Source: Candidatus Collierbacteria bacterium (lineage in GTDB: Bacteria; Patescibacteriota; Microgenomatia; UBA1400; JACPES01). Taken from it: DNA of 64,000 nt. The position numbers were made by a program, and so were the translations under genes. The notes under the pieces were generated by a model. It was not told the origin of the DNA, did no database searches, and saw nothing but the letters and a program-made list of their open reading frames with translations. The stretch covers positions 5,895 to 69,894 of the forward strand of contig JACPES010000005.1 in the NCBI GenBank assembly GCA_016183365.1, written 5' to 3'. Shown here in pieces: positions 1,686-52,986 of the stretch (the stretch's first letter is position 1; every line of letters begins with the position of its first letter).

Positions 1686-2373
1686 TTTAATTATTTTACA
1701 CCAAATCCTTGTTTTAACCCTTTTATCCAGCCACGCATTTTTCTTAGTCGATCAAGGCTCTTACTAATGTGAATTCTGATTACTCCATAATATTCATTTC
1801 TATTTGAATATTGCTTTTTCCACTGACTGTTCTGAAAAAATGGCTTGGTAAACTGGTTATAAGGCATATCCAAATAGTTAGACCAAAACTCTTCAATTGT
1901 TTTAATTCTATCTTTGTGCGAAATATTCGCAGTAACTCTGAACCTCAAATCTCCAATTGTAATGCCTAAATATTGTTTTAACCAATTCAGTCTTTCGTTA
2001 ACTCATGATATAATAATTTTGTTCTTTAACGTGCGGGTGGGAGGTAAGTATCTCGTGAGGCTTAATTATATGGGTCTCAATAAACTTGGCTATATGCTGG
2101 AAGTCCCGACCCAAAGTCGGGATAATCAGCAGGAAAGATCCCGATTGAATCGGGGAATCCTCAGAGACTACACGCCGAGTCCCGATTTAATCGGGGAAGA
2201 TATAGTCCGACACTCTTAAGTAATGGGAGACAACAATGTGCATAATCTCACTTAATCGGGGAGCGTAACCCCGGACCCGCAACCAGATTTCGCCGGTGAA
2301 TCTTCTTACTGATTTCTTTTTAACGTCTTGAAGGATACAAGGACATGAAGGATATAAAGAGTATAATGCCCCC

Positions 2374-11297: not shown

Positions 11298-11825
11298 CTA
11301 TCGATGTCCCAGTGTGTAAAGTGTGTCTAAGTGATTAAATCCAATATTCTGCGGTAGTTTTTTGAAGAATTTAATCTCGGCTGTGTCATCGGCAGGCTTG
11401 GAAGGCCAGGCCTTTCCCGGAAAGGCCTGGCCTTTTTGATCTGGTTTGATGGTGCATCGATATACTAAGTCGACTACGTGACCGCGCGGATCACCGGTTA
11501 GATCGTCAAATGCTTCGGCCAACTTCACATTCTCAACTTTTATCCCCAATTCTTCCTTTGCCACCCGCTTAACGCAATTCATTAACGCTTCGCCTTTCAA
11601 AACAAAACTCCCCGGCAAATGCCAGTAGCCGGCAAACGGCAGCCTTTTGCGTTTGGTCAGCAATACTGCTTTGCTGTTAAGTTTCGCAAACTTCACATTA
11701 GCGGAAGTTTGCGAAACTTCTATATCTTGCTCAATCAGGAGATTCACGGCCACCCGCGGCGCGTATTTAAAACTTCTAAGAAACGTTTGAAAGGGAAGTT
11801 TCTTGGGATTCATATCAATAATCAA
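11298..11825 (-). CDS. NUDIX hydrolase
   Basis: Nudix box GEALMNCVKRVAKEELG (Gx5Ex7REUxEExGU). Carries two in-frame palindromic repeat insertions. Confidence 0.7.
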   Translation of the reverse strand: MIIDMNPKKLPFQTFLRSFKYAPRVAVNLLIEQDIEVSQTSANVKFAKLNSKAVLLTKRKRLPFAGYWHLPGSFVLKGEALMNCVKRVAKEELGIKVENVKLAEAFDDLTGDPRGHVVDLVYRCTIKPDQKGQAFPGKAWPSKPADDTAEIKFFKKLPQNIGFNHLDTLYTLGHR

Positions 11826-12459
11826 GACCCATAACGGCTTTACGGCCAGAATCGAACGGATGTTTGATATTTTTCATCTCCGTTACCAGTTCGGCCAAAT
11901 CAATCAACTGTTTCGGCGCGTTTCTGCCGGTCAAAATAATATGCGTCTGCCCGCGTTTAGAAATTAGATCAATTAAGTCAATCAGATCAATTAATTTATC
12001 ATTGACAGCGTTGATGGCTTCGTCGAGGATTAAAAGAAATAAATGGTTGGGATGGCTTAAATGGTTAAAAGATTTTGTAGCCCTTGTAGCCATTTTGATC
12101 ATTTTTCCGCTTAATAATTCTCTCGTTAATTCCAGCGCTTCTCCCGCCGCTTTCCGGTGTTCATTTGCGCTTGCATGATCCGTCGGCAATTTATAAAATC
12201 CCAGCCCCATTGGATAAATTTCAAAGCTCCCGATTTCCCTTCTTGTGCTTTTTTGTGCTTTTTTGTGCTTTTTTGTGCTTGCCAGCATTTCCGGCAAATT
12301 ATGCTCGCCGATCCTCCATCGTTTCTCCTTATACCATTGGATCATCGCCACCCGCTTCCCCTGCCCCACCGCTCTCATCGCCACCCCAAGCGCTGCACTC
12401 GTTTTCCCCTTTCCATTCCCAGTAAAAATATAAACCAATCCGATGGCATTATCTTTCAT
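11815..12459 (-). CDS. cobA: cob(I)yrinic acid a,c-diamide / cob(I)alamin adenosyltransferase (CobA/BtuR family)
   Basis: P-loop FTGNGKGKTSAALG and ILDE motif. Contains in-frame low-complexity insertions from tandem repeats (KKHKKAQKS, LIDLIDLIDLI, NHLSHPNH). Confidence 0.65.
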   Translation of the reverse strand: MKDNAIGLVYIFTGNGKGKTSAALGVAMRAVGQGKRVAMIQWYKEKRWRIGEHNLPEMLASTKKHKKAQKSTRREIGSFEIYPMGLGFYKLPTDHASANEHRKAAGEALELTRELLSGKMIKMATRATKSFNHLSHPNHLFLLILDEAINAVNDKLIDLIDLIDLISKRGQTHIILTGRNAPKQLIDLAELVTEMKNIKHPFDSGRKAVMGLDY

Positions 12460-13497: not shown

Positions 13498-13614
13498 GAT
13501 TTTTAAGGCTAAAATACCGCCCCAGCGCCCATCCCAGTAGTACGTTGCTTGCTCCCCCCGATTTAATCGGGACGTCGCAAGGGCGCGACTACGGGACTTC
13601 GCTAGTTTGAATTT

Positions 13615-16170
13615 TTATAACGAACATTTTGAGTATCCACAAGAGTAACAAGTGCTGCACCCACTCTCGGAAGTCATTGCCGCTCCGCATTCCGGACAAT
13701 GGCCGTCGGCCAAATCCTCGGTGATCCGCCGTCTTTCAACCTGATATGCCCTTTGGGACAACGGCGTAATCTTCATCTGACTTTGCATCAGGCGTTGAGA
13801 TTGTTGATTGTTTTTCTCATCTTTCACATCCGCGGCAGTTTTTAATATTTGATTTTCTCTTGATCCGTCGCGATAGACGGTGATGCCTTTGCATCCAAGT
13901 TTCCAAGCGAGTAAATAAGCTTTTTCTACGTCTTTGACTGTGGCGGCACGGGAAAAATTAATGGTCTTGCTGACAGCGTTGTCAGTATATTTTTGAAACG
14001 CGGCCTGCATTTTAACGTGCCAGTCGGGAGAGATTTGGCGGGCGGTGCGGAAGATAGAAGATAAAATAGTCGAATGGTTAAGAGTGTTAAGAGTGTTAGG
14101 ATTGTTATCTACCCGATAACCATCTTTACCATCTCCACCATCTTGCCATCTTTCTATCTCTTTCTTCGCTTTTTCATAATACTTATTCGTATACCTCAAC
14201 CCTTCTTTCTCCACCACGTTTTTTGTATATTCCAAAGCAAAGTATGGTTCTATCCCCGATGAACAACCGGCAATCATGGAGATCGTCCCTGTCGGGGCGA
14301 TAGTTGTTATCGCCACGTTACGCACTTTTCGTCTGCGGCCAAACGGATTCTTGACGCTATTGAAATACGACTGTTTCCAGAGGGGGAATTCCGCCTTTTC
14401 TTTGGATAACTTCTCGCTCTCGTCCCAACTGATTTGCTGAATAAATTTCATGATCGATTCAGCTAATTTTATTCCTTCATCGCTGTCATAGCTTACGCCT
14501 AATTTAACCAACATATCCGCCCAGCCCATCACCCCAAGACCAATCCGCCGGAGTTTATGTGCCATATCGGCAATCTGTGGAATGGGATAGGTTGAGGCAT
14601 CTATGCCGTCGTCAAGAAAGCGGACCGCGGTGCGGATAACCTCTTCAAGACGGGACCGGTTAATATTGTCCAGAACACTCTGAAAACTCTGAAAGCCAGA
14701 CTGTCGGATAATCGGAGAATCGGAATGCCAGATTTTCTGGCTTTCCGGACCCCCGAGTTTTCCGAGTTTTCCGGAATCTTCCCAGAATGGTTTAATCACA
14801 AACTTCGCCAGATTTATGCTACCAAGGTTGCAAACGTCAAAAGGAAACAGAGGCTGTTCACCACATACATTTGTCGCATCTATCCGCCATTTTTTGATTA
14901 GAGGGTTATATTTATTGATAGTATCCAGATAAATCATCCCCGGGTCTCCGGTTAAGTGGGCTAAATTGATCATCTCATTCCATAGCCTCCGGGCCGAAAT
15001 TTTTTGGACCGTTGAGTCGTCGCGAGGATTAACCAATCCCCAGTCGGAATTTTTTTCTACCGCACTCATGAATCTATCAAAAGCGCCGACAGAAATATTG
15101 AAATTGCTAATTTCTCCGTCAACGGATTTGGCGCGGATAAATTCAAAAATATCCGGATGGTCAACGTTTAGGATCCCCATATTGGCGCCGCGGTGTTCGC
15201 CGCCCTGCATCACAATTTGGGTTTCGGCGTCAAACGCTTTCATAAAATTAATCGGACCGGAAGATAAGCCTCCGGAACGGACCGTATCGCCGCGGGGACG
15301 CAAATGAGAAAAATTAAAACCGGTTCCGCCGCCCATTTGATGGATCAGCGCCGCCCATTTGACGGCGTCGAAAATCTTCTCGATTGAATCCTCAACCGGT
15401 AAAACAAAACAATTGGCCAAAGATCCGTTCTGCTTATTTCCTGCCCCCCGGAAATAACACCCGGCCGGAACAAATTCAAAAAAGGTCATAATTTCCAGGT
15501 ACTTGTCCCACCAGTTATGTCTGGAAAGGCCAGGCCTTTTCAAAAAAGGCCTGGCCTTTTTTGATATCTTTTGTTCTACTTCGGCTTTCTCTGTTACAAC
15601 CACAGCGTCTGCGACGCGCCTCATTGCCTCCATGGGTGTTTCGATCACATTCCCCTCTTTATCTTTCCACAAATATCGTTTGGCCATGGCGGCATAGGCG
15701 TTATCCGACATACCAAGGCGAGAAGTGTCTGATAATTGAGAAGTACCAGATACTTCTCGTTGGGCTGCGCGCCGGTTCCGATAAAGAATGTAGGCCTGGG
15801 CCGCATCTTGGTGTCCGGCGGCCAGCAACACCTGTTCGACGATATCCTGAATTTCCTCGACTGTCCACTGATTATGACCGTTGGAACGAATCAGGGTATC
15901 CTCGACGATTTTGGCGAAGCGCTCCGCCTCTTTCCACAACGAAGATTGTTTGTCGGCTTTTTGTCGGGGAACTTCAGTCTCGGCGGCCCGACGGGCAATT
16001 TCGTCAACTCCGGTGATTTGGGAGAATTTTTTTCTTACTTGGGAAACCGCCCACAGCGACTGCCAAGCTGCCATGGTAATTTTGCCGCGGTCGTACTTTT
16101 GTTTCCGGCCGTCGCGCTTGAGGATGGTGTAAATTGGCCTATTGGTTTCTCCGGGTTTTTTATTTGACAT
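13615..16170 (-). CDS. nrdJ: class II (adenosylcobalamin-dependent) ribonucleotide reductase with N-terminal ATP-cone
   Basis: ATP-cone start IYTILKRDGRKQKYDRGKI; RNR core motifs (SLANCFVLP, ATNVCGEQ); C-terminal zinc ribbon CPECGAAMTSESGCSTCYSCGYSKC. Confidence 0.85.
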   Translation of the reverse strand: MSNKKPGETNRPIYTILKRDGRKQKYDRGKITMAAWQSLWAVSQVRKKFSQITGVDEIARRAAETEVPRQKADKQSSLWKEAERFAKIVEDTLIRSNGHNQWTVEEIQDIVEQVLLAAGHQDAAQAYILYRNRRAAQREVSGTSQLSDTSRLGMSDNAYAAMAKRYLWKDKEGNVIETPMEAMRRVADAVVVTEKAEVEQKISKKARPFLKRPGLSRHNWWDKYLEIMTFFEFVPAGCYFRGAGNKQNGSLANCFVLPVEDSIEKIFDAVKWAALIHQMGGGTGFNFSHLRPRGDTVRSGGLSSGPINFMKAFDAETQIVMQGGEHRGANMGILNVDHPDIFEFIRAKSVDGEISNFNISVGAFDRFMSAVEKNSDWGLVNPRDDSTVQKISARRLWNEMINLAHLTGDPGMIYLDTINKYNPLIKKWRIDATNVCGEQPLFPFDVCNLGSINLAKFVIKPFWEDSGKLGKLGGPESQKIWHSDSPIIRQSGFQSFQSVLDNINRSRLEEVIRTAVRFLDDGIDASTYPIPQIADMAHKLRRIGLGVMGWADMLVKLGVSYDSDEGIKLAESIMKFIQQISWDESEKLSKEKAEFPLWKQSYFNSVKNPFGRRRKVRNVAITTIAPTGTISMIAGCSSGIEPYFALEYTKNVVEKEGLRYTNKYYEKAKKEIERWQDGGDGKDGYRVDNNPNTLNTLNHSTILSSIFRTARQISPDWHVKMQAAFQKYTDNAVSKTINFSRAATVKDVEKAYLLAWKLGCKGITVYRDGSRENQILKTAADVKDEKNNQQSQRLMQSQMKITPLSQRAYQVERRRITEDLADGHCPECGAAMTSESGCSTCYSCGYSKCSL
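14671..14790. repeat. ~120-bp palindromic TIR element, in-frame within nrdJ-A
   Basis: CAGAACACTCTGAAAACTC...TTTCCGAGTTTTCCGGAA; same family as the copies in nrdJ-B, nrdJ-C, the two PBP genes and the 60530..62266 membrane-protein gene. Confidence 0.75.
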
Positions 16171-16198
16171 TATCTAGATAGAGCATATAATAAATTTA

Positions 16199-16945
16199 TT
16201 AACTCGTTTGGGATGGACGCTTGCGTCGGTTCCGACGGGTTTTTTCTTGCCAAAATCTTGTCTTGATCTGTTTCCATTTGATCACTCTTTCGGAAACAAT
16301 TTTAGTTCTAATTATTTGATAGAAAACGTTATCCTTTCCTGTCTGCGCCCATAACACGCTCCCGGCCACCATATCAGCAACATTAACCAGCGGTTCCGTT
16401 TGACTATCAACATGAACCGGCGATAACGGCTCGTCCAATAGACTAGTTAATACTTGATTAAATTTGTCTTGATCTATGGTTCTTTGAAAATGGCGGTCGA
16501 GAACGACGTGTTTAATCTGATGTTGATAGTATAAAAGACAATCTTCAAGCAGCAACCAGCAAAGAAGGGCAAAATTCTCCGGAGAATCGGTTATGCTTTG
16601 ATTTTGTTTTTCAACGATTAAAACAAAAATCTCTACGTCTTGAGCAGCCAATTTTTCCAGAAATTTTTTCTTAGTTCTGTCGCCGGCTCGATAAAACTTG
16701 ATTTCCGGCGGATTACTCTTGGCGTAATGTTTCCTGATAATTTTAGTCATGGATTTAAGTCGCTGGGGTGTTTGAGTTGATATGGCAGCTACAACCACAG
16801 CCGGATCCCGGGGATCGGGTAAAGTCCCGGATTCATCCAGATAAACAGTTCTGCCTACTCGCCTGTATTCAACCGCGGTGGGAAGCCGAGGAAATTTCCG
16901 CCCGTCGCGCTTGAGGATGATGGAAATTAACTTTTGGGATTTCAT
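16199..16945 (-). CDS. DUF3800-like protein whose first ~20 codons duplicate the nrdJ ATP-cone start
   Basis: YLDESG motif near the N-terminus (DUF3800 hallmark, recalled from memory). The N-terminus ISIILKRDGRKF and ~35 bp of DNA are near-identical to the nrdJ-A 5' end. Confidence 0.4.
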   Translation of the reverse strand: MKSQKLISIILKRDGRKFPRLPTAVEYRRVGRTVYLDESGTLPDPRDPAVVVAAISTQTPQRLKSMTKIIRKHYAKSNPPEIKFYRAGDRTKKKFLEKLAAQDVEIFVLIVEKQNQSITDSPENFALLCWLLLEDCLLYYQHQIKHVVLDRHFQRTIDQDKFNQVLTSLLDEPLSPVHVDSQTEPLVNVADMVAGSVLWAQTGKDNVFYQIIRTKIVSERVIKWKQIKTRFWQEKTRRNRRKRPSQTS

Positions 16946-17238
16946 TTGGTATATTGATTTATATTATGCCAGCTGGAATTAATGGATCTGAAGAAGATCA
17001 GGGAATATCGCGTCAAGAAACAGACCAGCCCGAAACATCCGAATCGGCAAGAACGTCGTTCCTAACATACATGGCATTTGGGATGCTGGCAATAAATGGG
17101 GCAATTGAAGTCGCCAATGGAATAGCCATGGATGACGGATCGAAAATGTTCTACGGAGGTGTTGACATATTAATTGCTGCTTTGGCATATTTTGCTACTC
17201 CGCATAGATACCGACGTGTTTAGTAGGTGTATCTTTTT

Positions 17239-19302
17239 TTAGACGCTGCATTTTGACCAACCGCAGCTATGGCAAGTGACACAACCATTTTCGGCAATTA
17301 CCGCAGCTCCACACTCCGGACAGACGGCGGCGGGACCGGAGCCGGGACGCAAAGGCAAATGTTGAATGGCAGAATTTTCATTCGTCATTCGTAATTGGTC
17401 ATTCGTCATTGTATCCTTAGCAAGATTCAAAACCTGATCTTTTTTTGAGCCGTCTCTATAAATAGTAATCCCCTTGCAGCCGAGTTTCCAGGCCAGAATG
17501 TAGGCTTTTTCTACATCTTCAACAGTAGTATTATGGGGGAAGTTAATGGTTTTGCTGATTGAGTTATCAAAATGTTTCTGCCAGGCGGCCTGAATCTTAA
17601 CGTGCCACGATGGAGAAATCTCATGGGTGGTAACAAATATCTTATAAAACCAGCCGGGCAAACCTTCGATGGATTTTAATCCGTATTCCGCGACGTGTTT
17701 CAGAACACTCGGAAAACTCGGAGTTTCAGATAAATCAGAAAGTCGGAGAATCGGAAAATCAGAACTTCTGATCTTCTGATTTTCTGACTTTCTGACATTC
17801 CGGCTTTCCGAGTTTTCAGAGTTTTCCGAAATGACTCTCTTTAGTTCTTCTTCAAACACCGGATCGACCATATATATTTCCTTCGTCGGCCTATTTTTTC
17901 TATCGTCTTCAAAGAATGTTCGTCTTTTTGTGACCAACGAAAAAATCGGCTCTATCCCCGAAGTAGTGTCGGCGAGCATCGCCGTAGTCCCAGTGGGGGC
18001 AATCATGGTAGTAGCGCAGTTTCGCATCGGATGCTTGTCAAAATAAATACTCCTGTCCCAGTTGCCGAAGTTGCCGCGGACTTTGGCCAGTTTCATACTC
18101 TCATTTTGGGCAGTTTCCTGGATGAACTTTGCCAATTTTTCCGAAAGCTCCTCCGCTTGACTAGAGTTGTACGGAATACCTAATTTAACCAACATATGGG
18201 AAAATCCCATCACGCCTAATCCAATGCGGCGGTTGCCGTTTTTGACCATCTGCTCAATTTCGGGAATAGCATAGGTATTAACTTCAATCATGTCGTCGAG
18301 AAACCGGACCCCGAGACGGACGCTCTTTTCTAAGTCTTCCCAGTCAACTCCATTCATTGTTTCCTGTTTCTTGCTTCTTGCTTCTTTTATATGATTCTGC
18401 AAGCAAATACTTGTCAAATTGCAACTCTCGTAGGGCAAAAGTCCGATTTCGCCGCAGGGATTAGTCGCTTCTATCCGTCCAATTTGGGGAGTGGGGTTGT
18501 CGCGGTTAAAAGTATCCAAAAACATCAAACCCGGATCGCCGGTTTGATGGGCGTGGTCAACGATCATTTTGAATAATTTCCGGGCTTTTATCTTTCTCAC
18601 CGGCTCCCCGGTTCTGGGGTTAATTAAATTCCACATCTTATCCGCCTGAACCGCTTTCATAAATTCGTCGGTTACTCCAACGGAAATATTAAAGTTCTTG
18701 ATAGTGCCATCCTCGTCTTTAAGGCGAATAAAGTCTTCAATGTCGGGATGGTCGGCGTTTAAAATCCCGATGTTGGCGCCTTGGCGTTTGGCGCCCTGAA
18801 GAATTTTTGACAGGGCGGCGGAATAGGCGGCCAGAAAGTCCACCGGACCGGAGGCGGCGTTGGGGACATTTTTGACTTTGTCGCCGCGGGGACGGATGCG
18901 GGAAAAATTAAAGCCGGTGCCGCCGTTATTTTTATGGACGACGGCAGCGTCACCCAAGGTTTTGAAAATCGACTGAATGTTGTCTTCGACCGGAAGAACG
19001 AAACAGCTGCTCAATTGGCCGGTGCCGCCGGGGTTACCGGCCTCAAACATGGCCTTGCCGGCGCATACGAATTTGAAATTCACCATCCGGTCGTAAAAGG
19101 CGACGGCAATCTCGGCAACTTTCCCGTTTCCGCCATTCCAATTGACTTCGGCTTTAGCCATATGTCTGGCGACCCGCCACAGCATCTCTCCCGGAGTTTC
19201 GATGACTTTTCCGGACATATCGGTGCGGAGATAACGCTTCTGGGAAATCTTTATGGCAGTTGGTGATAGTTTTGGTTCGATGATAGTCATATGTATAGAC
19301 AA
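17239..19302 (-). CDS. nrdJ: class II ribonucleotide reductase paralog (no ATP-cone)
   Basis: SSCFVLP, ATNPCGEIGL, C-terminal CPECGAAVIAENGCVTCHSCGWSKC. Carries a ~135-bp in-frame palindromic element. Confidence 0.85.
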   Translation of the reverse strand: MSIHMTIIEPKLSPTAIKISQKRYLRTDMSGKVIETPGEMLWRVARHMAKAEVNWNGGNGKVAEIAVAFYDRMVNFKFVCAGKAMFEAGNPGGTGQLSSCFVLPVEDNIQSIFKTLGDAAVVHKNNGGTGFNFSRIRPRGDKVKNVPNAASGPVDFLAAYSAALSKILQGAKRQGANIGILNADHPDIEDFIRLKDEDGTIKNFNISVGVTDEFMKAVQADKMWNLINPRTGEPVRKIKARKLFKMIVDHAHQTGDPGLMFLDTFNRDNPTPQIGRIEATNPCGEIGLLPYESCNLTSICLQNHIKEARSKKQETMNGVDWEDLEKSVRLGVRFLDDMIEVNTYAIPEIEQMVKNGNRRIGLGVMGFSHMLVKLGIPYNSSQAEELSEKLAKFIQETAQNESMKLAKVRGNFGNWDRSIYFDKHPMRNCATTMIAPTGTTAMLADTTSGIEPIFSLVTKRRTFFEDDRKNRPTKEIYMVDPVFEEELKRVISENSENSESRNVRKSENQKIRSSDFPILRLSDLSETPSFPSVLKHVAEYGLKSIEGLPGWFYKIFVTTHEISPSWHVKIQAAWQKHFDNSISKTINFPHNTTVEDVEKAYILAWKLGCKGITIYRDGSKKDQVLNLAKDTMTNDQLRMTNENSAIQHLPLRPGSGPAAVCPECGAAVIAENGCVTCHSCGWSKCSV
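17701..17835. repeat. ~135-bp palindromic TIR element, in-frame within nrdJ-B
   Basis: CAGAACACTCGGAAAACTCGGAG...TTTCCGAGTTTTCAGAGTTTTCCGAA; translated as ENSENSESRNVRKSENQKIRSSDFPILRLSDLSETPSFPSVL. Confidence 0.8.
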
Positions 19303-19332
19303 ATTTTAAATTGTAAATTAACTCTCTTGTCC

Positions 19333-21405
19333 TCATACCGAGCATTTACTCCATCCGCATTCCTGACAAGTTGCGCATCCATCCATCAACGTCAGTTCTC
19401 CCCTGCATTCCGGACACACTTCGTCAGGATTTCCTTTAACCGTTAACCTTTGACCTTTGACCTTCCCCACATTGAGCACTTGCTCTCTCCGGCAGCCGTC
19501 GCGATAAACCGTAATTCCTTTACATCCGGTTTCGAAAGCTAATAAATAAGCGTTTTTAATATCGTCGACTGTGGCCGAATTGGGCAAATTAATAGTTTTT
19601 GATACCGCCGCATCTGTATATTTTTGCCATGCGGCTTGCATTTTAATATGCCATCTGTAGGGAATTTCCATGGAGACACGGAAGATATCTCTTACTTCTT
19701 GCGGAATTTCTTTAATATTTTGGCAACTGCCGGACACAGAGACTCTCTCCAGAACACTCGGAAAACTTGGAACATCAGATAAATCAGAAGATCGGAGTTT
19801 CAGAGAACCAGAATTTCTGGTCGTCTGATTGTCTGATTTTCTGATTTTCCGGCTTTCAGAGTTTTCAGAGTTTTCTGAAATTACACCAACTGCTTTTGAA
19901 AATTCTTCGTTAACTTCTAGCAAACTCGTCTTCCCCAAATCTAAAATATTTTCCCTTCTGTACGCCAAGGCAAACAACGGTTCTATTCCACTGGAACAAC
20001 CGGCGATTATGGAAATAGTCCCGGTCGGGGCGACGGTGTTGACCGTTGAATTACGCATATGAGTGAAACCTTGCTTCTGCCAAACGCTATCTTCGAAAGC
20101 CGGGAAAGAACCACGACTTCTAGCCAGTTCCACCGAGGCGTCGCGGGCAGTATCATGGATAAATTTAGCGGTTTTTTTCGCTAGTTTCAACGCCGCTTCC
20201 GAGTCGTAACGAACCCCCAGTTTAATCAACATGTCCGCCCAGCCCATGACGCCGACGCCGATTTTTCTGGTGGTCAGGGCCATTTTTTTTAATTGGGGAA
20301 TCGGATAGTCGCAGAGGTCGATAACGTTGTCCTGAAAGTGAACCCCGAGACGGACGACCTCTTCTAATCGTTTCCAGTTGATTCTTTCCAGAACACTCGG
20401 AAAACTCTGAGAACCAGAGAAATCGGAATATCGGAGGATCGGAGAATCAGACGATCCGGCCTTCTGACTTTCTGATTTTCTGATATTCCGGCTTTCCGAG
20501 TATTCCGAGTTTTCTGAACTTACAAATCTTCCCAGGTTTATATTCCCCAAGTTGCATGACTCATACGGTAATAGGGCTTGTTCGCCACACGGGTTAGTTG
20601 CTTGATATATCCCTAATTTTGGCGTCGGACAATATTTATTCATGACATCTAAAAACACTAATCCCGGGTCGCCGACTTTCCAGGCCTGGGTGGCGATTAA
20701 ATTCCATAACTCCATCACGTCGATATCTTTTTCGGTGGCGCCGTCGTTGGGGTGAAATAAATGAATAGTCCCCTTTTTGGCTTTGACCTTTTCCATAAAT
20801 TCGTCTGTAGCCCCGACGCTGACGTTAAAATGGTAGAGCGTGGACGGATCTTCTTTGGACATAATAAATTCAACGATGTCCGGGTGATCAACCTTCAATA
20901 CTCCCATCAGGGCGGGGCGGCGGGCGCTGGCCTCGGCGATGGTGGCGGCGGAATAATTAAATAACCGCAGGAAAGAAACGGCGCCGGAACTGATGCCGCC
21001 GGTTGATTCCACCAAAGAACCCCGCGGCCTAAGATTTGTCAGCGGGATTCCAATCCCGCCGCCGGTCCGTAAAATCAGGGCCGCGTTGCGCAGTTGATCA
21101 TAAATATCTTCCAAGGAATCGGATAAAGGCAAAACATAGCAAGCCGAAAATTGTTTATGCTTGCGGCCGGCGTTAAGGAGGACCGAGCCGGAAAGATATT
21201 CCAAATTCGACATGGCCCGATAAAAATCATCGGCGACTTTTTTTATCTCCTGATCCGCTTTATCTCCCTTTACTCTTAGATATTTTTTGTCAGCCGACGC
21301 GATTAAGTTAGCTACCCGTCGGAACATCTGATCAGGGATTTCTTTTGGCAAAAGATAGCCGCGTTTTTTCAAAACTACCAAAGCGTTATCGGATAAATTT
21401 GTCAT
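19333..21405 (-). CDS. nrdJ: class II ribonucleotide reductase paralog (no ATP-cone)
   Basis: SACYVLP, ATNPCGEQAL, C-terminal CPECRGELTLMDGCATCQECGWSKC. Carries two in-frame palindromic elements. Confidence 0.85.
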   Translation of the reverse strand: MTNLSDNALVVLKKRGYLLPKEIPDQMFRRVANLIASADKKYLRVKGDKADQEIKKVADDFYRAMSNLEYLSGSVLLNAGRKHKQFSACYVLPLSDSLEDIYDQLRNAALILRTGGGIGIPLTNLRPRGSLVESTGGISSGAVSFLRLFNYSAATIAEASARRPALMGVLKVDHPDIVEFIMSKEDPSTLYHFNVSVGATDEFMEKVKAKKGTIHLFHPNDGATEKDIDVMELWNLIATQAWKVGDPGLVFLDVMNKYCPTPKLGIYQATNPCGEQALLPYESCNLGNINLGRFVSSENSEYSESRNIRKSESQKAGSSDSPILRYSDFSGSQSFPSVLERINWKRLEEVVRLGVHFQDNVIDLCDYPIPQLKKMALTTRKIGVGVMGWADMLIKLGVRYDSEAALKLAKKTAKFIHDTARDASVELARSRGSFPAFEDSVWQKQGFTHMRNSTVNTVAPTGTISIIAGCSSGIEPLFALAYRRENILDLGKTSLLEVNEEFSKAVGVISENSENSESRKIRKSDNQTTRNSGSLKLRSSDLSDVPSFPSVLERVSVSGSCQNIKEIPQEVRDIFRVSMEIPYRWHIKMQAAWQKYTDAAVSKTINLPNSATVDDIKNAYLLAFETGCKGITVYRDGCRREQVLNVGKVKGQRLTVKGNPDEVCPECRGELTLMDGCATCQECGWSKCSV
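19751..19880. repeat. palindromic TIR element copy 1 in nrdJ-C
   Basis: CCAGAACACTCGGAAAACTTGG...TTTCAGAGTTTTCAGAGTTTTCTGAA. Confidence 0.8.
20391..20520. repeat. palindromic TIR element copy 2 in nrdJ-C
   Basis: CCAGAACACTCGGAAAACTCTGAG...TTTCCGAGTATTCCGAGTTTTCTGAA. Confidence 0.8.
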
Positions 21406-21414
21406 ATTTTCTGT

Positions 21415-21545
21415 TATCGGATTTCAGTTTTCTGTTTTCGGTTTTCTGTTTTCAGGTTGACCGGTTTTCTGTTTGCCAGTTCGAAACCGATAAACTGAAG
21501 ACTGACTAACTGCAAACTGATAGCTGACAACCGAGAACTGATAAC
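21415..21545. repeat. degenerate intergenic copy of the same palindromic element (5' leader of nrdJ-C)
   Basis: tcagttttctgttttcggttttctgttttcagg ... gaaaccgataaactgaagactga. It has GTTTTCTG / CAGAAAAC-type dyad symmetry. Confidence 0.5.
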
Positions 21546-21744
21546 CGTATCCGCCCCGCCTAAATTCTTTAGCTTTTGGCGGGGCGGTCTGTTGACCTCA
21601 CCGGTATTCCGACTTTAAGAAATCACCACTGAACCGTCAACTACCAATATCCGTATCAGAGTCAATCACCACTTCCGTTTGAACCAGATTGCCGCAAAAA
21701 CTGCCAATAATAAATAAATCTATATATTAAGTTGAACAATTAAA

Positions 21745-33829: not shown

Positions 33830-36355
33830 ATGGCGAAGACAAAACCAAGGAAGAAGGTAGAAAGTAGAAGAAAGAATGATAAGAATAAATCACTATTATT
33901 GTGGCAAAAATTTAAAAAATTTGCCTTTACTTTTGAATTGACACCGGAGAATATCCGGAGATCGTGGACTCGAAAAGGGCTAAGGGCCAAGGGCCAAGGG
34001 CCAAGGGCCAAAACTCGCCGCCGATTTCTTATTTACTCATTAGTATTTATTAGTTTATTCGTAATTATTAGTATTTATTTATTACGGGATATTCCCTCTC
34101 CAACCAAACTCGCTTCCGGCAACTTTCCGGTTTCGACTCAAATTTTCGACCGCAACGGCCAACTGTTGTACGAAATTTACGCCGACCAGAACCGGACGCC
34201 GATTAAACTTAAGGATCTGCCGCCGTTTGTCTTGCAGGCGACGATTGCGATTGAGGACAAGAATTTTTACCGGCATTTTGGGATTGATATTTTTGGAGTC
34301 GCCCGGGCGGCGGTGAAAACCCTGACCGGACAGCGGCTGGAGGGCGGATCGACGATTACCCAGCAATTGGTCAAAATGACGCTGTTGACGCCGGAGCGAA
34401 GTTTGAGCCGGAAAATTCGGGAGGCGGCGCTGGCGGTAGCGACGGAAGTTTTATATTCTAAAGATCAAATATTGGAGATGTATTTGAACCACGCGCCTTA
34501 CGGCGGAACGGCTTATGGAATCGAGCAGGCAGCCAAAAGATATTTTGGCAAAAGCGCCAAGGATTTGAGTTTGCCGGAGGCAGCCCTTCTGGCAGGATTG
34601 CCGCAGGCGCCATCAGCGTATTCGCCATTCGGGTCGCGGCCGGAGAACGCCAAACAACGGCAAAAAGATGTGTTGCGGCGGATGAAAGAAGATAGATATA
34701 TCACTTCCCAGGAAGAGAGGGAAACGGAAGAGGCGGTTTTGGAATATTCTACTGCGAATATTCCGATTCGGGCGCCACATTTTGTGTTATGGATAAAGGA
34801 TTTATTGATTGAAAAATTCGGCCAAAAAACAGTAGAGGGTGGAGGATTAAGTGTGACAACAACGCTGGACTTGGCGATTCAAGAAATGGCTCAAGCCAGC
34901 GTGTCAGCCGAGGTAAAAAAACTAAAAAGTTTGCGGGTGGGCAACGGAGCGGCGTTGGTCACCAATCCGGGGACCGGAGAAATTTTAGCGATGGTGGGGT
35001 CAAAAGATTATTTTGATACGGAAAACGACGGCAATGTCAATGTGACAATTCGGCCGCGCCAACCGGGATCCTCCATTAAGCCCGTTATGTACGCTGGCGG
35101 TTTTTCGACCGGAAAACTTACTCCCTCCACTATGTTGATTGATGCGCCGACCTGTTTCAGAGTTCTCAACCAACCGGATTATTGTCCCCAAAATTATGAC
35201 GGTCAGTCCCATGGTCCGGTTCAAATCAGGTTTGCTCTGGGCAATTCTTACAATATTCCGGCGGTAAAATCCCTGGCATATATCGGCCTGGAGGATATGA
35301 TCGCGACGGCGTCGGCAATGGGAATCTCGACTTTTACCGATCCCTCCCGCTATGGTTTGTCGTTAACCTTGGGCGGCGGAGAAGTTACTATGTCCGATAT
35401 GGCCACGGCTTTTGGAACCCTGGCAAATAACGGGGTAAAAGTGCCGCTAAACCCGTTTTTGAAGATAGAAAATTATAGAGGAGAGGTTTTATACCAACGG
35501 ACTACGGAGGAACGACTAAATGATCTTCGGAACACTCAGAATACTCAGAAAGCCAGAGAATCAGACAATCAGAAATTCGGAGAATCAGAGTCTCTGGACT
35601 TCCGATCCTCAGATTCTCTGATAATCCGGTCCTCTGAGTTTTCCGAGTTTTCTGAAATCATCCAGGCTATTCCGGCAGAAGCAGCATACTTGGTCAGTCA
35701 TATTCTCCTGGACAATAACGCCCGGACCGCCGCATTTGGGCCGAGTTCGCAACTGGTAATACCGGGGCAAGTGGTTTCGGTAAAGACCGGAACTACCAAT
35801 GACCTTCGGGACAACTGGACTTTGGGGTACACCCCGGAACGGCTAGTGGCGGTATGGGTGGGAAATAATGATAATAAACCAATGAACCAAGCTCTGGTTT
35901 CTGGCATCACCGGGGCAGCGCCGATTTGGCACAACATCATGAGACAACTGCTATGGAGTCGAAGGCCTATTTGGCCGGAAAGACCGGAAGGGGTGGTCGG
36001 AAAAGATGTCTGCGTTCTGACCGGTCTCTTACCGACGCCAGGAAATTTATGCGATACTCGGCATGAATTTTTCTGGGATAAGTTCTTGCCCGCGAATAAT
36101 TATCCCCTCCAACGGGAGATCTGGATTCGCAAAGATACCGGGACGCCGATTGATCCCAATATTCCGCTGGACCAGCAAGGAGAGTTAGAATTGCAAAACC
36201 ATACGGTTATTTCCGACCCGCTGGTGCCGGAATTCTGTTTGGACTGCGCGTATCCGGTAATTCAGGAGTTAAATCCCGACGGATCGGTGAAAGAGGAGCG
36301 GATCAATTACCCCGGGTCGGTGATTAACACTACGTCATTGCGAGCCCCGCCGTAG
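33830..36355 (+). CDS. class A penicillin-binding protein (transglycosylase + transpeptidase)
   Basis: EDKNFYRHFGIDIFGVARA, GGSTITQQLVK (GT51); SIKP, SYN, KTGT transpeptidase motifs. Contains a ~135-bp in-frame repeat, and its stop codon lies inside a repeat. Confidence 0.85.
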   Translation: MAKTKPRKKVESRRKNDKNKSLLLWQKFKKFAFTFELTPENIRRSWTRKGLRAKGQGPRAKTRRRFLIYSLVFISLFVIISIYLLRDIPSPTKLASGNFPVSTQIFDRNGQLLYEIYADQNRTPIKLKDLPPFVLQATIAIEDKNFYRHFGIDIFGVARAAVKTLTGQRLEGGSTITQQLVKMTLLTPERSLSRKIREAALAVATEVLYSKDQILEMYLNHAPYGGTAYGIEQAAKRYFGKSAKDLSLPEAALLAGLPQAPSAYSPFGSRPENAKQRQKDVLRRMKEDRYITSQEERETEEAVLEYSTANIPIRAPHFVLWIKDLLIEKFGQKTVEGGGLSVTTTLDLAIQEMAQASVSAEVKKLKSLRVGNGAALVTNPGTGEILAMVGSKDYFDTENDGNVNVTIRPRQPGSSIKPVMYAGGFSTGKLTPSTMLIDAPTCFRVLNQPDYCPQNYDGQSHGPVQIRFALGNSYNIPAVKSLAYIGLEDMIATASAMGISTFTDPSRYGLSLTLGGGEVTMSDMATAFGTLANNGVKVPLNPFLKIENYRGEVLYQRTTEERLNDLRNTQNTQKARESDNQKFGESESLDFRSSDSLIIRSSEFSEFSEIIQAIPAEAAYLVSHILLDNNARTAAFGPSSQLVIPGQVVSVKTGTTNDLRDNWTLGYTPERLVAVWVGNNDNKPMNQALVSGITGAAPIWHNIMRQLLWSRRPIWPERPEGVVGKDVCVLTGLLPTPGNLCDTRHEFFWDKFLPANNYPLQREIWIRKDTGTPIDPNIPLDQQGELELQNHTVISDPLVPEFCLDCAYPVIQELNPDGSVKEERINYPGSVINTTSLRAPP
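35526..35662. repeat. palindromic TIR element in-frame within PBP gene 1
   Basis: GGAACACTCAGAATACTCAGAAAG...GAGTTTTCCGAGTTTTCTGAA; translated as RNTQNTQKARESDNQKFGESESLDFRSSDSLIIRSSEFSEFSE. Confidence 0.8.
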
Positions 36356-36788
36356 GCGGGGCGTGGCAATCTAAAGTCATTGCGAGCGACCGGAGGGAGC
36401 GCGGCAATCTAAAAATTTGATGCAAGAACAGTCCTTCTGTGTTTATTTGATGAGCAATCCCGGCAGAACGGTACTTTATACCGGTGTAACCCGAAACTTG
36501 ATAAAACGGGTATGGCAACATAAAGAGAAAGTCGCTGATGGTTTTACCAAGAAATACAATGTTACCGATATGGTCTATTACGAAATCCTTGATTCACCGA
36601 TTGAAGCAATCGAACGCGAAAAGCAAATTAAGAGTTGGTCGAGAAAAAGGAAAAATCGCTTGGTAGAAGCGGAAAATTCTTCATGGAAAGATTTATACGA
36701 TGAAATCGTATCATGGTGAGTAATGCAAGAGGGATGACGCTAAAGCGTCAGATTGCCACGCCCCGCCGGTAGCGGGGCTCGCAATGAC
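36344..36788. mobile_element. GIY-YIG gene cassette bounded by ~39-bp terminal inverted repeats
   Basis: Left GTCATTGCGAGCCCCGCCGTAGGCGGGGCGTGGCAATCT (36344-36382, plus a second partial tandem copy 36377-36410). Right AGATTGCCACGCCCCGCCGGTAGCGGGGCTCGCAATGAC (36750-36788) is its reverse complement. Confidence 0.65.
36417..36719 (+). CDS. GIY-YIG nuclease family protein (YhbQ/Slx1-like small form)
   Basis: FCVYLMSNPGRTVLYTGVTRNLIKRVWQHKE is a GIY-YIG motif; 100 aa. Confidence 0.7.
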   Translation: MMQEQSFCVYLMSNPGRTVLYTGVTRNLIKRVWQHKEKVADGFTKKYNVTDMVYYEILDSPIEAIEREKQIKSWSRKRKNRLVEAENSSWKDLYDEIVSW

Positions 36789-37292: not shown

Positions 37293-39665
37293 ATGGACAG
37301 AAGGCGCCGCCGCGTTGGTTTTGACGTAGATGTTTTTTCCGGATTCAGGTTATTAGGTAAACCCCTTTATTACTTTCTATTTTTGGCGCTGCCATCCGGC
37401 ATTCTTTTAATTACCAGTCTTGCCGCTAGACTAAAAACTAATTCCCAAAAATATTCAAAAGGGGCCATCAGGAAAACCCGCAAGACTGCCAAACGGCTTG
37501 GTTTTCCAAAAATTGTTATTCCAAAAATTTCATTGCCGCCTATATCGATTTTCTATGCCGCAATTTTTTTATCTATTATTGGCATTCTATGGATGTTTTA
37601 TTTTTATATCTTCAAAGATCTTCCCACCCCTTATGATTTAAAAAAACACCAGCCAAAACTCAGTACCCATATTTTGGACCGCAATGAACAAGAGCTGTAT
37701 AAAATCTATAAGGACGAAAACCGGTCATTGATAAAAATAGATGAGCTCCCGTCATACTTAATTGACGCTACGGTTTCTATCGAAGATAAAGAATTTTGGA
37801 ATCATGCGGGTTTTTCACCCACTGGCATCATTCGAGCAATTTACCACAATTGGTTTATCTCCTTAGCCCTTAGCCCTAGACCCTCGACTCTTGCTACGCA
37901 GGGCGGATCTACCATCACCCAACAGCTAATAAAAAATACATTGTTAACTCCGGAAAAAACTATAAGACGAAAGGTGCGAGAATTAATTCTGTCCGTATGG
38001 GTAGAACGGGTATTTTCTAAAAAAGAAATTTTGGAAATGTATCTTAACGAAGTAAGCTTTGGCGGCACGGCTTACGGAATCCAGGAAGCCTCACAACAGT
38101 ATTTCGGAAAGAATGCCGTCTCCTTATCACTGGCTGAAGCCGCTTTATTAGCCGGTTTACCGGCCGCTCCGACCGCCTATTCTCCTTTCGGAATCAACCA
38201 AGGAAAAGCTAAAGAACGACAAGCCGATGTTTTAAGGAGGATGGCAGAAGACAAAAATATTTCTGCGGAATCAGCGGAAGAAGCCCTAAGGGAAGAACTT
38301 AAATTTTCCCAAAATTCGACCAATATTAAAGCCCCGCATTTTGTGATGTACGTCCGCGACTGGTTGGCTTCAAAGTTTGGAGAGGATATGGTAAACAACG
38401 GCGGCCTTAAAGTTATTACCACTCTTGATCTGGATTTACAGGAATTTGTTCAAAAAACGGTAACTGACGAAGTAGCCAGCCTAAAAAAATTAAAGGTTAC
38501 CAATGGAGCGGCGTTAGTGACTGATCCTAAAAGCGGGGAAATCTTGAGCCTGGTAGGTTCCCAAAATTATTTCGACTTTCAACATGACGGTCAAGTCAAC
38601 GTTGTTTTCCGTCCGCGCCAACCGGGATCGTCCATTAAGCCCATAATGTACGCTGCGGCATTCCAGAAAGGTTTTACCCCGGCCTCGGTGATTCTCGACG
38701 CCCCGATATCTTTTTCAACTCCCGGTTCTAAACCATACAGTCCGGTTAATTACGATGGTAAATTTCATGGCCCGATCCCAATTAGGACCGCTTTAGCCAG
38801 TTCTTACAATGTTCCGGCAGTTAAAGTTCTGTCAACTATCGGAGTTAATATTATGATAGATCAAGGAGAAGCCATGGGGATAAACACCTGGGGCGACAGA
38901 AAAAGGTTTGGTTTATCGCTGACTTTGGGTGGCGGAGAAATTACCATGGCAGATATGGCGGAAGCATACGGAACGATAGCAAATTATGGGGTCTATGTTC
39001 CGCTAAATCCAATACTCAAAGTTGAAAATAGTCAGGGAAAAGTGTTGTTTCAGAAAACTCCGAATAGTCAGAATGTCGGAACGTCAGACAGTCAGACAGT
39101 CGGAAATTCTGATTCTCAGATTTTTCCGAGTATTCCGAACAGGGCTATGCCCGCCGGAGTAGCTTTTCAATTAATTGATATCTTGTCTGACCCGATCGCC
39201 CGAGCTCCGGCATTCGGGACCAGATCAGTCTTAAATATCCCTGGCCATCAGGTGGCGGTTAAAACCGGCACTACCAATAATCTTCGGGACAACTGGACAT
39301 TCGGCTTTACGACTGACTTCGTAGTATCTGCCTGGGTGGGCAATAACGATAATTCTCCGATGAGCTATATTGCTTCCGGAATTACCGGGGCATCTCCGAT
39401 TTGGTCAAGAATTACCCAAGGCATTTTAAGCCAGAGAAAAACTCCGCACGTCTTTCCCCAACCCCAAGATTTAGTGACTATAAAAATCTGCGCTCTAACC
39501 GGACAATTAGCATGCGAAGATTGTCCGGTCCGGGAAGAATTTTTTATTCCCGGGACTGAACCCAAAACCGCCTGCCGTCCGGAGACGATCGATGAAATCA
39601 GACGCAAACAGGAAGAATCAAAAAATAAAGACCGGATTCTGGATGGGGCTGCCTCCAGACGCTAA
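37293..39665 (+). CDS. class A penicillin-binding protein paralog
   Basis: EDKEFWNHAGF, GGSTITQQLIK; SIKP, SYN, KTGT. Contains an ~80-bp in-frame repeat (39061-39140). Confidence 0.85.
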   Translation: MDRRRRRVGFDVDVFSGFRLLGKPLYYFLFLALPSGILLITSLAARLKTNSQKYSKGAIRKTRKTAKRLGFPKIVIPKISLPPISIFYAAIFLSIIGILWMFYFYIFKDLPTPYDLKKHQPKLSTHILDRNEQELYKIYKDENRSLIKIDELPSYLIDATVSIEDKEFWNHAGFSPTGIIRAIYHNWFISLALSPRPSTLATQGGSTITQQLIKNTLLTPEKTIRRKVRELILSVWVERVFSKKEILEMYLNEVSFGGTAYGIQEASQQYFGKNAVSLSLAEAALLAGLPAAPTAYSPFGINQGKAKERQADVLRRMAEDKNISAESAEEALREELKFSQNSTNIKAPHFVMYVRDWLASKFGEDMVNNGGLKVITTLDLDLQEFVQKTVTDEVASLKKLKVTNGAALVTDPKSGEILSLVGSQNYFDFQHDGQVNVVFRPRQPGSSIKPIMYAAAFQKGFTPASVILDAPISFSTPGSKPYSPVNYDGKFHGPIPIRTALASSYNVPAVKVLSTIGVNIMIDQGEAMGINTWGDRKRFGLSLTLGGGEITMADMAEAYGTIANYGVYVPLNPILKVENSQGKVLFQKTPNSQNVGTSDSQTVGNSDSQIFPSIPNRAMPAGVAFQLIDILSDPIARAPAFGTRSVLNIPGHQVAVKTGTTNNLRDNWTFGFTTDFVVSAWVGNNDNSPMSYIASGITGASPIWSRITQGILSQRKTPHVFPQPQDLVTIKICALTGQLACEDCPVREEFFIPGTEPKTACRPETIDEIRRKQEESKNKDRILDGAASRR
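39061..39140. repeat. short copy of the palindromic TIR element in PBP gene 2
   Basis: GTCAGAATGTCGGAACGTCAGACAGTCAGACAGTCGGAAATTCTGATTCTCAGATTTTTCCGAGTATTCCGAAC. Confidence 0.65.
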
Positions 39666-41567: not shown

Positions 41568-42544
41568 AAGTGAGTCAAACCTTTCTTTGCCCCAATAAAC
41601 TTAACTACATTCGCCGCCTGTTTTTTCCCCAATTCAACAGATTCTTCAATTGATTTCCCTCTCATAAATCCGACCACAAACCCAGAACCGAAAGCGTCGC
41701 CGGCGCCGGTAGAATCAACCATTTTGGTTTTAATTCCTTTATACCAGAAGCAATTTCCATTGTGACAAATCCGCCCTCCCCTTTTACCGTCGGTGATTAC
41801 CAAAATCGTTTCCGGCAAAATAGGGCAATGGTCAGCTTTCCAAACCGTTTCATCAATATAATTAACGCCAAAAAATTCTGTGGCTTCTTGACGATTCAAT
41901 TGCAAAACCTTGACGGCGTCTATTAAGGCCTGGCCTTGTCCAAACAATCCAGACAAGAATCCAGACAAGGCCAGGCCTTTTCTGACAACAGCAATTTCGG
42001 CTACACCAGGATTCCAGAAAACCTTCCTTTCCTTCTCCTTTCCCCAAACCAAAACTTTTTCCACTAATTCCATATCCCCGCCGACGCTGGTTAAATAAAT
42101 CCAACCCCCGGGCTTTAAAATCATTCCCAATTTGTCAAACGGAATATCACCGGCGATCAACATTTTTGAAGCCCCACGATAGGTAACAATCGAATTCTTT
42201 CCCTCGCTGGACAATAAAATTACCGATACGGCCGTAGTCTCGTTTTCTTCCTGAGTAACAAAAGACCGATCCAAACCCTCACGTTCAAGTTCAATTAAAA
42301 TTGTTGCTGACGCCGGGTCTTTGCCTATTTCAATAATCGGCGCCGCCTGAAAACCGTTTCTGGCAAAAGCCACCGCTGAATTGGTCGCGCCGCCGCCACT
42401 GGTCATCACTAATTCCTGGGCTTCGATCTTACCTTCATATTTCTCGCAAAGATAAACGCCCCGCTCGTGGTGATCAATCTTAAATTGGTCTGATTTTAGG
42501 AAAATATCCAATGTCGCCGAGCCGATGGAAACCACATCAAGCAT
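41564..42544 (-). CDS. PfkB-family carbohydrate kinase (ribokinase-like)
   Basis: C-terminal DSTGAGDAFGSGFV motif and N-terminal GGGATN. Confidence 0.7.
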   Translation of the reverse strand: MLDVVSIGSATLDIFLKSDQFKIDHHERGVYLCEKYEGKIEAQELVMTSGGGATNSAVAFARNGFQAAPIIEIGKDPASATILIELEREGLDRSFVTQEENETTAVSVILLSSEGKNSIVTYRGASKMLIAGDIPFDKLGMILKPGGWIYLTSVGGDMELVEKVLVWGKEKERKVFWNPGVAEIAVVRKGLALSGFLSGLFGQGQALIDAVKVLQLNRQEATEFFGVNYIDETVWKADHCPILPETILVITDGKRGGRICHNGNCFWYKGIKTKMVDSTGAGDAFGSGFVVGFMRGKSIEESVELGKKQAANVVKFIGAKKGLTHL

Positions 42545-51365: not shown

Positions 51366-51466
51366 TTGGTTGCAAATTTATTAATTATTAAATTGTTATA
51401 TTGCTAAATTTGTTCCGGTACAATCAGCAATTTAACAATCTAGCAATGTAGCAATGTAGCAATTTT

Positions 51467-52911: not shown

Positions 52912-52986
52912 TGTTAGATTGTTAGATTGTTAGATTGTTTTTGTTAACAATCCAGCAATTTAGCAATGTAGCAATTTTACTCGACA

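Follow-up and report, generated by a model that had tools for sequence, protein, structure and literature searches.

Four inserts in the three tandem nrdJ genes of a Candidatus Collierbacteria contig probably belong to a dispersed, non-autonomous family of palindromic repeats of Microgenomates, members of the Candidate Phyla Radiation (CPR, or Patescibacteria), whose copies, where they lie in frame, would be translated into disordered extensions of loops. The DNA analysed (hereafter the window) is a 64,000-nucleotide stretch of contig JACPES010000005.1; its NrdJ-C protein is 100% identical to an NCBI protein named as that of Candidatus Collierbacteria bacterium (Microgenomates, CPR), whereas exact look-ups with NrdJ-B and with one other protein of the window gave no match. 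The palindromic element of the nrdJ copies, which we call family 1, resembles miniature inverted-repeat transposable elements, or MITEs, and Rickettsia palindromic elements (RPEs). Its copies are delimited here by their terminal inverted repeats (TIRs; Table 1), and sites 1 and 2 denote the two loops of NrdJ into which it is inserted. The original prediction, made from the letters of the DNA alone, was of an RPE-like palindromic element inserted in frame. It is supported by the 83 copies described below, about half of them genic, by their housekeeping hosts and by their positions in loops.

Repeat finding and alignment recovered all four predicted copies in the three tandem nrdJ genes. All lie on the coding (minus) strand, and the reading frame is intact in 4 of 4. 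With up to three mismatches allowed, the window contains 15 occurrences of the terminal 17-mer, where shuffled sequence would lead one to expect 0.4. The predicted length of about 120–135 bp holds for three of the nrdJ copies (132 nt), but not for the 107-nt copy in nrdJ-A. The encoded inserts are markedly hydrophilic, as foreseen (grand average of hydropathy, GRAVY, −0.6 to −1.1), and span 36–45 residues, where about 40–45 had been proposed. Predicted tryptic peptides that cross the junctions include SSDFPILR and LSDLSETPSFPSVLK. Protein alignment confirmed that site 1 is common to nrdJ-A and nrdJ-C, and site 2 to nrdJ-B and nrdJ-C. RNA folding, which had been proposed as a check, predicted long hairpins, with energies from −48 to −67 kcal/mol (z-scores, −4.5 to −9.8).

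The TIRs of family 1 are about 27 nt long and consist of three TCNGAAAAC units with the tip TTCNGAA; one end carries GAAAAC and the other GAACAC. In an alignment of 69 copies the left end is TTCNGAAAACTCNGAANACTCNGA, and its complement forms the right end, which finishes with GAGTGTTCNGAA; the inverted-repeat sequence includes TTCNGAAAACTCNGAANACTC. The shared ends are reverse complements of each other, as predicted. The interior is variable apart from a TCNGA core that recurs every 8–9 nt, and the number of 8-nt units differs between copies. The spacers between the cores are rich in purines over the left half of the element and in pyrimidines over the right. Across the 69 copies, the 64 conserved columns (TIRs and TCNGA cores) average 93% pairwise identity, and the 54 variable columns 44%. 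TIR-bounded lengths range from 91 to 165 nt, and the element contains no independent open reading frame (ORF). Length modulo 3, a count that had been suggested, is mixed among copies and gives no consistent signal; in four of the seven window copies the length is not divisible by three. Because orientation from nhmmer alone was unreliable for some copies, we used the GAACAC end as a marker.

The interior had been described as a palindromic core of TCAGA/TCTGA repeats. We find instead a phased array of TCNGA-centred units of 8–9 nt, rather than a palindrome specific to each copy: the left and right arms of one copy match at 0.51, and arms taken from different copies at 0.49. Native copies also fold no better than chimeras of arms from different copies, and we therefore rejected the maintenance of copy-specific hairpins. 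A role of TCNGA as a restriction or methylation motif was likewise rejected, since outside the elements the motif is neither depleted nor enriched (observed/expected in the window, 0.94). Two family-1 copies on other contigs, L010 3051–3209 and L024 2021–2185, hold nested small GC-rich hairpins, e.g. CCTGCCCAGCCGGCAGG, so small palindromes insert into existing elements too.

A profile built from the four nrdJ copies (nhmmer) revealed three more copies in the window, all in frame, giving seven in-frame copies in 64 kb. The element, originally placed in the nrdJ genes, is therefore not nrdJ-specific: two of these copies lie in paralogous genes for PBP1A-type penicillin-binding proteins (PBPs) and one in a gene for a membrane protein. 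Both PBP copies occupy the same loop of the paralogous proteins, which are 49% identical. Since other frames are used, and two of the three additional copies are antisense to their hosts, the same DNA yields unrelated peptides: SENSEN...SFPSVL in nrdJ, NTQNTQ...SEFSEFSE in the PBP gene holding the copy at 35526–35656, and LNTLKTQ...SIPSFPN in the membrane protein. A small ORF with a GIY-YIG nuclease domain (89–100 residues; 36417–36719, plus strand) stands between the two copy-bearing PBP genes; no link between it and the element has been shown.

We searched for the exact two-ended pattern in species-representative genomes, metagenomes, viral contigs, phages and plasmids. The representative genomes gave 12 matches, nine of which fit the element profile. 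These nine are from bins of Levyibacteriota, Woesebacteria, Collierbacteria, Microgenomates and Saccharimonadales, with two bins labelled Gammaproteobacteria that may be mis-binned. In metagenomes, 55 loci carried the pattern. A profile search of 490 kb of fetched loci then yielded 83 non-redundant copies on CPR (Microgenomates) contigs. This wider search also provided the comparison of genic and intergenic copies that had been called for, and they are about half and half: 35 of the 83 are clearly inside long ORFs and 5 probably inside ORFs, 36 are intergenic or in short ORFs, and 7 are at contig edges. Genic hosts include ATP-dependent DNA ligase, RadA (four contigs), topoisomerase I (two), MreB, the large chain of carbamoyl-phosphate synthase, a Pyr_redox_2 enzyme, glycogen phosphorylase, Wzy_C, DUF2298 membrane proteins and PBP1A.

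The genic copies are entered in at least three frames (SEN.., QKT.., GKL..) and left in three (..SFPSVL, ..EFSE, ..RVFRVF), and they occur in both orientations (16 sense, 12 antisense). Because at least three frames and both orientations are read, the family is conserved as DNA and not as peptide. About 0.15 of frames are open, and intergenic copies have none or one of six frames open, about as many as random sequence. Stop codons are no scarcer in intergenic copies than in random sequence, and we therefore rejected the idea that the element is pre-adapted to be coding. Searches with the insert peptides gave one match among 18 candidates and, in another search, 50 weak matches, several of them to unrelated low-complexity or phage tail-fibre proteins; with such short low-complexity queries, peptide profile searches are of little use for judging spread.

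In NrdJ the inserts fall in loops, as the proposed alignment to Thermotoga NrdJ revealed. Site 1 lies between residues 345 and 351 of Thermotoga maritima NrdJ, directly after the CNLGSI strand (structures 1xje and 1xjk), and site 2 between residues 532 and 549; the nrdJ inserts are alignment gaps against the structure (PDB 1xje). An AlphaFold model of NrdJ-C has a confident core, with predicted local distance difference test (pLDDT) scores below 50 at residues 299–335, 512–520 and 533–548. The PBP insert falls within the transpeptidase domain, at a segment that varies in Pseudomonas PBP1a as well (PDB 4oon), and the membrane-protein insert is a hydrophilic segment within a hydrophobic protein. 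From these gaps and the model we infer that the inserts form solvent-exposed surface loops.

Comparison with relatives bears on the timing of the insertions. NrdJ-C relatives are 72–81% identical, and their differences in length are largely due to inserts present or absent at the two loops. The related contig L007 has the same gene order as the window (C, B, a small ORF, A). At nrdJ-A site 1, where the window has a family-1 copy, L007 has 27 nt only and no element; its nrdJ-A carries (CCAGGCA)x3. At nrdJ-B site 2 the family-1 copy of the window and L010 is replaced in L007 by a different palindrome (AATGGCT units). nrdJ-B site 1, empty in the window and in L078, holds a family-1 copy in L010, a different palindrome in L007 and an unrelated insert in L079. 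nrdJ-C site 1 has four different inserts, or none, over six orthologs: a family-1 copy (window), a palindrome of GAATACTGA units (L007), (CAGAAAA)x4 (L009) and GC-rich repeats (L010), with L078 and L079 empty. At nrdJ-C site 2 the window, L007 and L010 have the same family-1 copy, L009 has a perfect 36-nt palindrome, and L078 and L079 are again empty. RadA orthologs carry copies in the same loop in opposite orientations (L071 and L075). The NrdJ paralogs are 42–45% identical in protein, and their elements 80–83% identical in DNA.

Occupancy has changed after the duplication of the nrdJ paralogs, because relatives with the same three-gene array differ in the sites that are filled. The proposed choice between site-specific insertion and insertion before duplication is thus not supported as it was stated. 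Repeated colonisation of permissive loops by several palindrome families fits better, possibly with some target preference at the loops; the paralogs then share sites because the same loops were recolonised by family 1 and by other palindromes.

We also compared substitution in the copies and in their hosts, using the proportions of differing synonymous (pS) and nonsynonymous (pN) sites. Over three genomes, the nrdJ-C site 2 copy has pS of 0.18–0.23 and pN of 0.17–0.20 (ratio of nonsynonymous to synonymous rates, dN/dS, about 1), and the rest of the gene has pS of 0.69–0.72 and pN of 0.13. The near equality of pS and pN in the copy indicates no constraint at the protein level. At nrdJ-B site 2 the contrast is weaker (pS of 0.40 in the copy and 0.56 in the host). 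The nrdJ copies of three Collierbacteria-like genomes form a 132-nt subfamily, in which orthologous and non-orthologous members are about equally related (0.63–0.76 at variable columns, against a background of 0.44). On the mRNA strand A–C mismatches outnumber G–U pairs in both orientations (74 vs 47 and 80 vs 28). G–U wobble is therefore not enriched on that strand, as A–C mismatches are, and selection for an RNA hairpin was rejected.

By these comparisons the copies are not neutral remnants that date back as far as their host lineages, and they are not conserved as peptides either. They may instead reflect concerted evolution towards a consensus that changes slowly, re-insertion into the same site at a later time, or selection at the nucleotide level. 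We give a small chance to the stronger claim that the genic copies are not passive, the TIRs and phased TCNGA array being kept in essential genes across Microgenomates by nucleotide selection or by nucleotide-precise re-insertion at the same codon. If true, the element would be a functional or homing-like DNA module within coding sequence, and this would explain a nrdJ-C copy with pS of about 0.2 in a host whose synonymous sites are near saturation.

The reading that we favour, a dispersed MITE- or RPE-like repeat, would work as follows. Copies would be spread by an enzyme acting in trans and would land in intergenic and coding DNA alike. Those in coding DNA would survive purifying selection only if they were in frame, free of stops and in tolerant surface loops, and the survivors would be translated as hydrophilic, probably disordered loop extensions of 30–45 residues. 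Both loops of NrdJ, and a single loop in the transpeptidase domain of the PBPs, would be permissive spots, recolonised by family 1 and by other palindrome families. Several observations weigh against this. Mobility is a presumption, and translation of the inserts without excision is the most economical reading. The flanks have no direct repeat in common that would mark a target-site duplication, the TTCNGAA motifs at the two ends being inverted and not direct. No solo TIR was found beside a transposase in the 490 kb of loci or the window, a search that did not extend to whole genomes, and the element is absent from the viral contigs and the phage and plasmid collections searched. Near-identical copies at different loci were not found; among non-orthologous pairs, identity at variable columns reaches 76% at best. 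Divergence of the orthologous nrdJ-C copy is well below that of the synonymous sites of its host, unlike what a passive fossil would show. Finally, since copies are not intrinsically stop-free, a genic to intergenic ratio near 1:1 exceeds what naive insertion and filtering would predict.

Four alternatives were weighed. It is unlikely that the element acts at the DNA or RNA level, as a protein-bound TCNGA array or structured mRNA, and is kept in genes by nucleotide selection. Such a function would suit the strong hairpins, the TIRs and TCNGA cores that are at least 90% conserved across distant Microgenomates lineages amid near-random spacers, and the low pS of the nrdJ-C copy relative to its host, with synonymous positions (e.g. 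GAA and AAC in the TIR) unchanged. However, the arms lack covariation and can be exchanged between copies with no loss of folding, the excess of A–C mismatches over G–U wobble on the mRNA strand is the opposite of what RNA-hairpin selection predicts, and TCNGA is unremarkable in frequency elsewhere in the window. Occupancy also differs between close relatives, about half of the copies are intergenic and the nrdJ-B contrast is weak; concerted evolution to a slowly changing family consensus could yield the same pattern. We regard as quite unlikely a single insertion per site before the paralogs duplicated, with vertical inheritance since. The four nrdJ copies do share orientation and frames of entry and exit, nrdJ-B and nrdJ-C have identical junction residues at site 2 (VI|SENSEN ... 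SFPSVL|K/E), and the nrdJ-C site 2 copy is common to three diverged genomes. Yet the three-gene array is older than the split of the window and L007, and occupancy nevertheless differs at nrdJ-A site 1, at both nrdJ-B sites and at nrdJ-C site 1. The elements are moreover far more similar in DNA than the paralogs are in protein, and the RadA copies point in opposite directions.

It is very unlikely that repeat-prone loops produced the palindromes locally, through template switching and slippage during replication, with no transposition. Such an origin would accommodate the lineage-specific repeats and palindromes in the same loops, among them the (CAGAAAA)x4 and the perfect 36-nt palindrome of L009 and the (CCAGGCA)x3 of L007 nrdJ-A, together with the variable number of 8-nt interior units and the failure to find a target-site duplication or a transposase partner. 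But more than 80 copies, located in unrelated genes and spacers and in several candidate phyla, share the 27-nt TIRs and the overall plan. Such recurrence needs copying from a common source, so slippage explains variation of the interior and not dispersal. Removal of the segments after transcription or translation, in the manner of introns or inteins, is extremely improbable, even though nrdJ is a known intein host, several nrdJ-C orthologs carry inteins and a group I intron lies elsewhere in the window. Pfam families, read from the same genes on identical public contigs, include only ribonucleotide reductase domains in the nrdJ genes. The peptides have 31–45 residues, end in ..SVLE, ..FSE or ..FPN, lack intein blocks and junction residues, and have no intein Pfam match. 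Rfam searches of 13500–21700 returned only far sub-threshold, chance matches to generic hairpin (microRNA precursor) models and no match to an intron model. The frame in which this DNA is read varies from host to host, and TIR-bounded lengths are often not multiples of three; for the four window copies of this kind, exact removal of the element would break the frame. The inteins (PF14528, PF14890) are in nrdJ-C orthologs of about 1010–1110 residues (P0003, P0007, P0012–P0014 and P0016), so the same gene is targeted by a second class of selfish element.

Among known systems, family 1 is close in behaviour to RPE-1 to RPE-10 and the Wolbachia palindromic elements (Ogata et al. 2000, 2002, 2005; summarised in PMC10969869 and PMC3767692). 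Like family 1, RPEs are palindromic repeats of 100–150 bp with several families per genome (PMC10969869, PMC3767692); about half of their copies are in frame in unrelated housekeeping genes, and no transposase is known. Their encoded segments occupy solvent-exposed regions, an exposure that for family 1 is deduced from gaps against 1xje and 4oon and from pLDDT below 50. RPE orthologs often share the insert locus, with hot spots discussed, and some families have a short recurring motif (ATGAC in RPEs, TCNGA here). In contrast to the obligate intracellular Alphaproteobacteria that carry RPEs, the hosts of family 1 are free-living or episymbiotic CPR bacteria, and we claim no sequence relationship. 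Family 1 further differs in its clear TIRs of about 27 nt and phased sub-repeats of 8–9 nt, in lacking a CGTC end tag (PMC3733652), and in being read in several frames with no defining conserved peptide. With Candidatus Collierbacteria as the host, common descent with RPEs is unlikely.

Bacterial MITEs that form in-frame fusions with host ORFs, such as Coxiella QMITE1, Anabaena MITEb and MITEe, and intragenic ERIC and BOX (PMC10969869, PMC5896051), are similarly 70–300 bp long with TIRs of 15–30 bp, have no coding capacity for a transposase, and are multicopy and dispersed, with occasional translational fusions and presence/absence differences between relatives. Unlike them, family 1 has no target-site duplication or cognate insertion sequence that we could find, and its in-frame genic fraction (about half) is far above the usual. 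Intragenic repetitive extragenic palindromes (REPs; PMC3733652), tagged by GTAG or CGTC, are also palindromes inside genes, many of their hosts being replication and repair genes, and different REPs occupy about the same gene site in related species (PMC3733652). REPs are, however, 20–40 bp long and often linked to a REP-associated tyrosine transposase (RAYT). Family 1 is 91–165 bp long and has neither tag, its ends reading TTCNGAA... and ...TTCNGAA; we saw neither a RAYT nor any other transposase in the annotated parts of the window. Palindromic amphipathic repeat coding elements (PARCELs; PMC2996958) are likewise dispersed, probably mobile coding sequence with dyad symmetry. In PARCELs a conserved amphipathic motif of 25 residues is repeated in tandem, and the proteins that contain it have no known function, whereas here single copies interrupt known enzymes with no conserved peptide motif. 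Several species are reported to have REPs or MITEs within genes (PMC3733652, PMC10969869), so the statement that RPE-like behaviour is rare elsewhere was too strong. Full-text literature searches on CPR, Patescibacteria and Microgenomates yielded no description of such in-frame palindromic or MITE elements. Family 1 is apparently an undescribed counterpart of RPEs with a distinctive phased sub-repeat architecture, the class itself being known.

Palindromic repeats that code for protein have so far been regarded as peculiar to Rickettsia and Wolbachia, apart from isolated REPs and MITEs inside genes elsewhere. The present copies reveal that the CPR has an independent equivalent, which is widespread and comprises several families. 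It provides a second comparative case for asking how such elements enter genes, why small genomes tolerate them, and whether new protein loops draw on them as raw material. For annotation, it suggests that the low-complexity inserts of 30–45 residues in many CPR proteins are repeat DNA rather than lineage-specific domains, and for metagenome assembly that the repeats are likely break points. The conservation of genic copies above host synonymous sites raises the question of concerted evolution or hidden function.

Table 1. Genes of the nrdJ cluster and family-1 copies of the window (aa, residues of the host protein).
Feature	Coordinates	Strand	Description
nrdJ-A	13615–16170	minus	Class II ribonucleotide reductase with N-terminal ATP-cone; hosts copy A
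nrdJ-B	17239–19302	minus	Class II ribonucleotide reductase; hosts copy B
nrdJ-C	19333–21405	minus	Class II ribonucleotide reductase; hosts copies C1 and C2
Copy A	14669–14775	minus	107 nt, shorter and degenerate; in frame, nrdJ-A aa 466–501 (site 1)
Copy B	17699–17830	minus	132 nt, 15 TCNGA cores; in frame, nrdJ-B aa 491–535 (site 2)
Copy C1	19748–19879	minus	132 nt; in frame, nrdJ-C aa 509–553 (site 2)
Copy C2	20387–20518	minus	132 nt; in frame, nrdJ-C aa 296–340 (site 1)
Copy in PBP1A-type gene	35526–35656	minus	131 nt; host 33830–36355 (plus), aa 566–609; antisense to host, in frame
Short copy in paralogous PBP1A-type gene	39049–39139	plus	91 nt; host 37293–39665 (plus), aa 586–616; in frame
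Copy in membrane-protein ORF	60867–60996	minus	130 nt; host 60530–62266 (plus), aa 113–156; antisense to host, in frame

Family 1 is accompanied by other palindromes. In a hairpin scan of the window, 14 palindromes within genes reached a score of at least 16, and 10 codon shuffles gave none. Besides family 1 there are families built on AATGGYTAG units, ATTGYTAG units and CNGAAAA heptamers, all three also present at other loci, and small GC-rich palindromes. The AATGGYTAG family lies in frame in both transketolase half-genes (44482–44576 and 45667–45736), as well as at L007 4085–4185 (nrdJ-B site 2) and in L064 and L065. The mostly intergenic ATTGYTAG family is found at 51374–51465 and 52910–52975 and at L065 5677–5746. 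A CNGAAAA palindrome stands directly upstream of the nrdJ-C start (21408–21549), the position taken in L007 by a family-1 copy (301–441); its relatives lie inside the DNA-ligase ORF of L013 (5532–5663) and at L065 8772–8885. Small perfect palindromes (AAGGCCAGGCCTT and its complement; AAGTTTCGCAAACTT and its complement) are in frame in NUDIX, nrdJ-A, PfkB and membrane-protein genes (11402–11434, 15525–15559, 41925–41979, 11679–11719 and 61710–61749), and the one in nrdJ-A adds ..ARPFLKRPGL.., which is missing from other NrdJ sequences.

Some neighbouring features deserve mention. A tandem decamer, (TTTTTGTGCT)x4 at 12240–12279, lies inside the gene for the BtuR/CobO corrinoid adenosyltransferase (11815–12459), whose distance from the B12-dependent nrdJ cluster is two ORFs, about 1.2 kb. 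Between nrdJ-A and nrdJ-B, a DUF3800 ORF (16199–16945, minus strand) starts with a 47-nt copy (16895–16941) that is 81% identical to the 5′ end of nrdJ-A (16102–16148; ..ILKRDGRK.., the start of the ATP-cone), which suggests that the DUF3800 gene landed in, or captured, an ATP-cone start. At 2031–2290 (plus strand) a tRNA-like gene, with halves TGCGGGT...ACCCGCA followed by ACCA and with a T-arm, is apparently split by a compact group I intron (2053–2228; Rfam RF00028, 66 bits), and ARAGORN made no tRNA call there.

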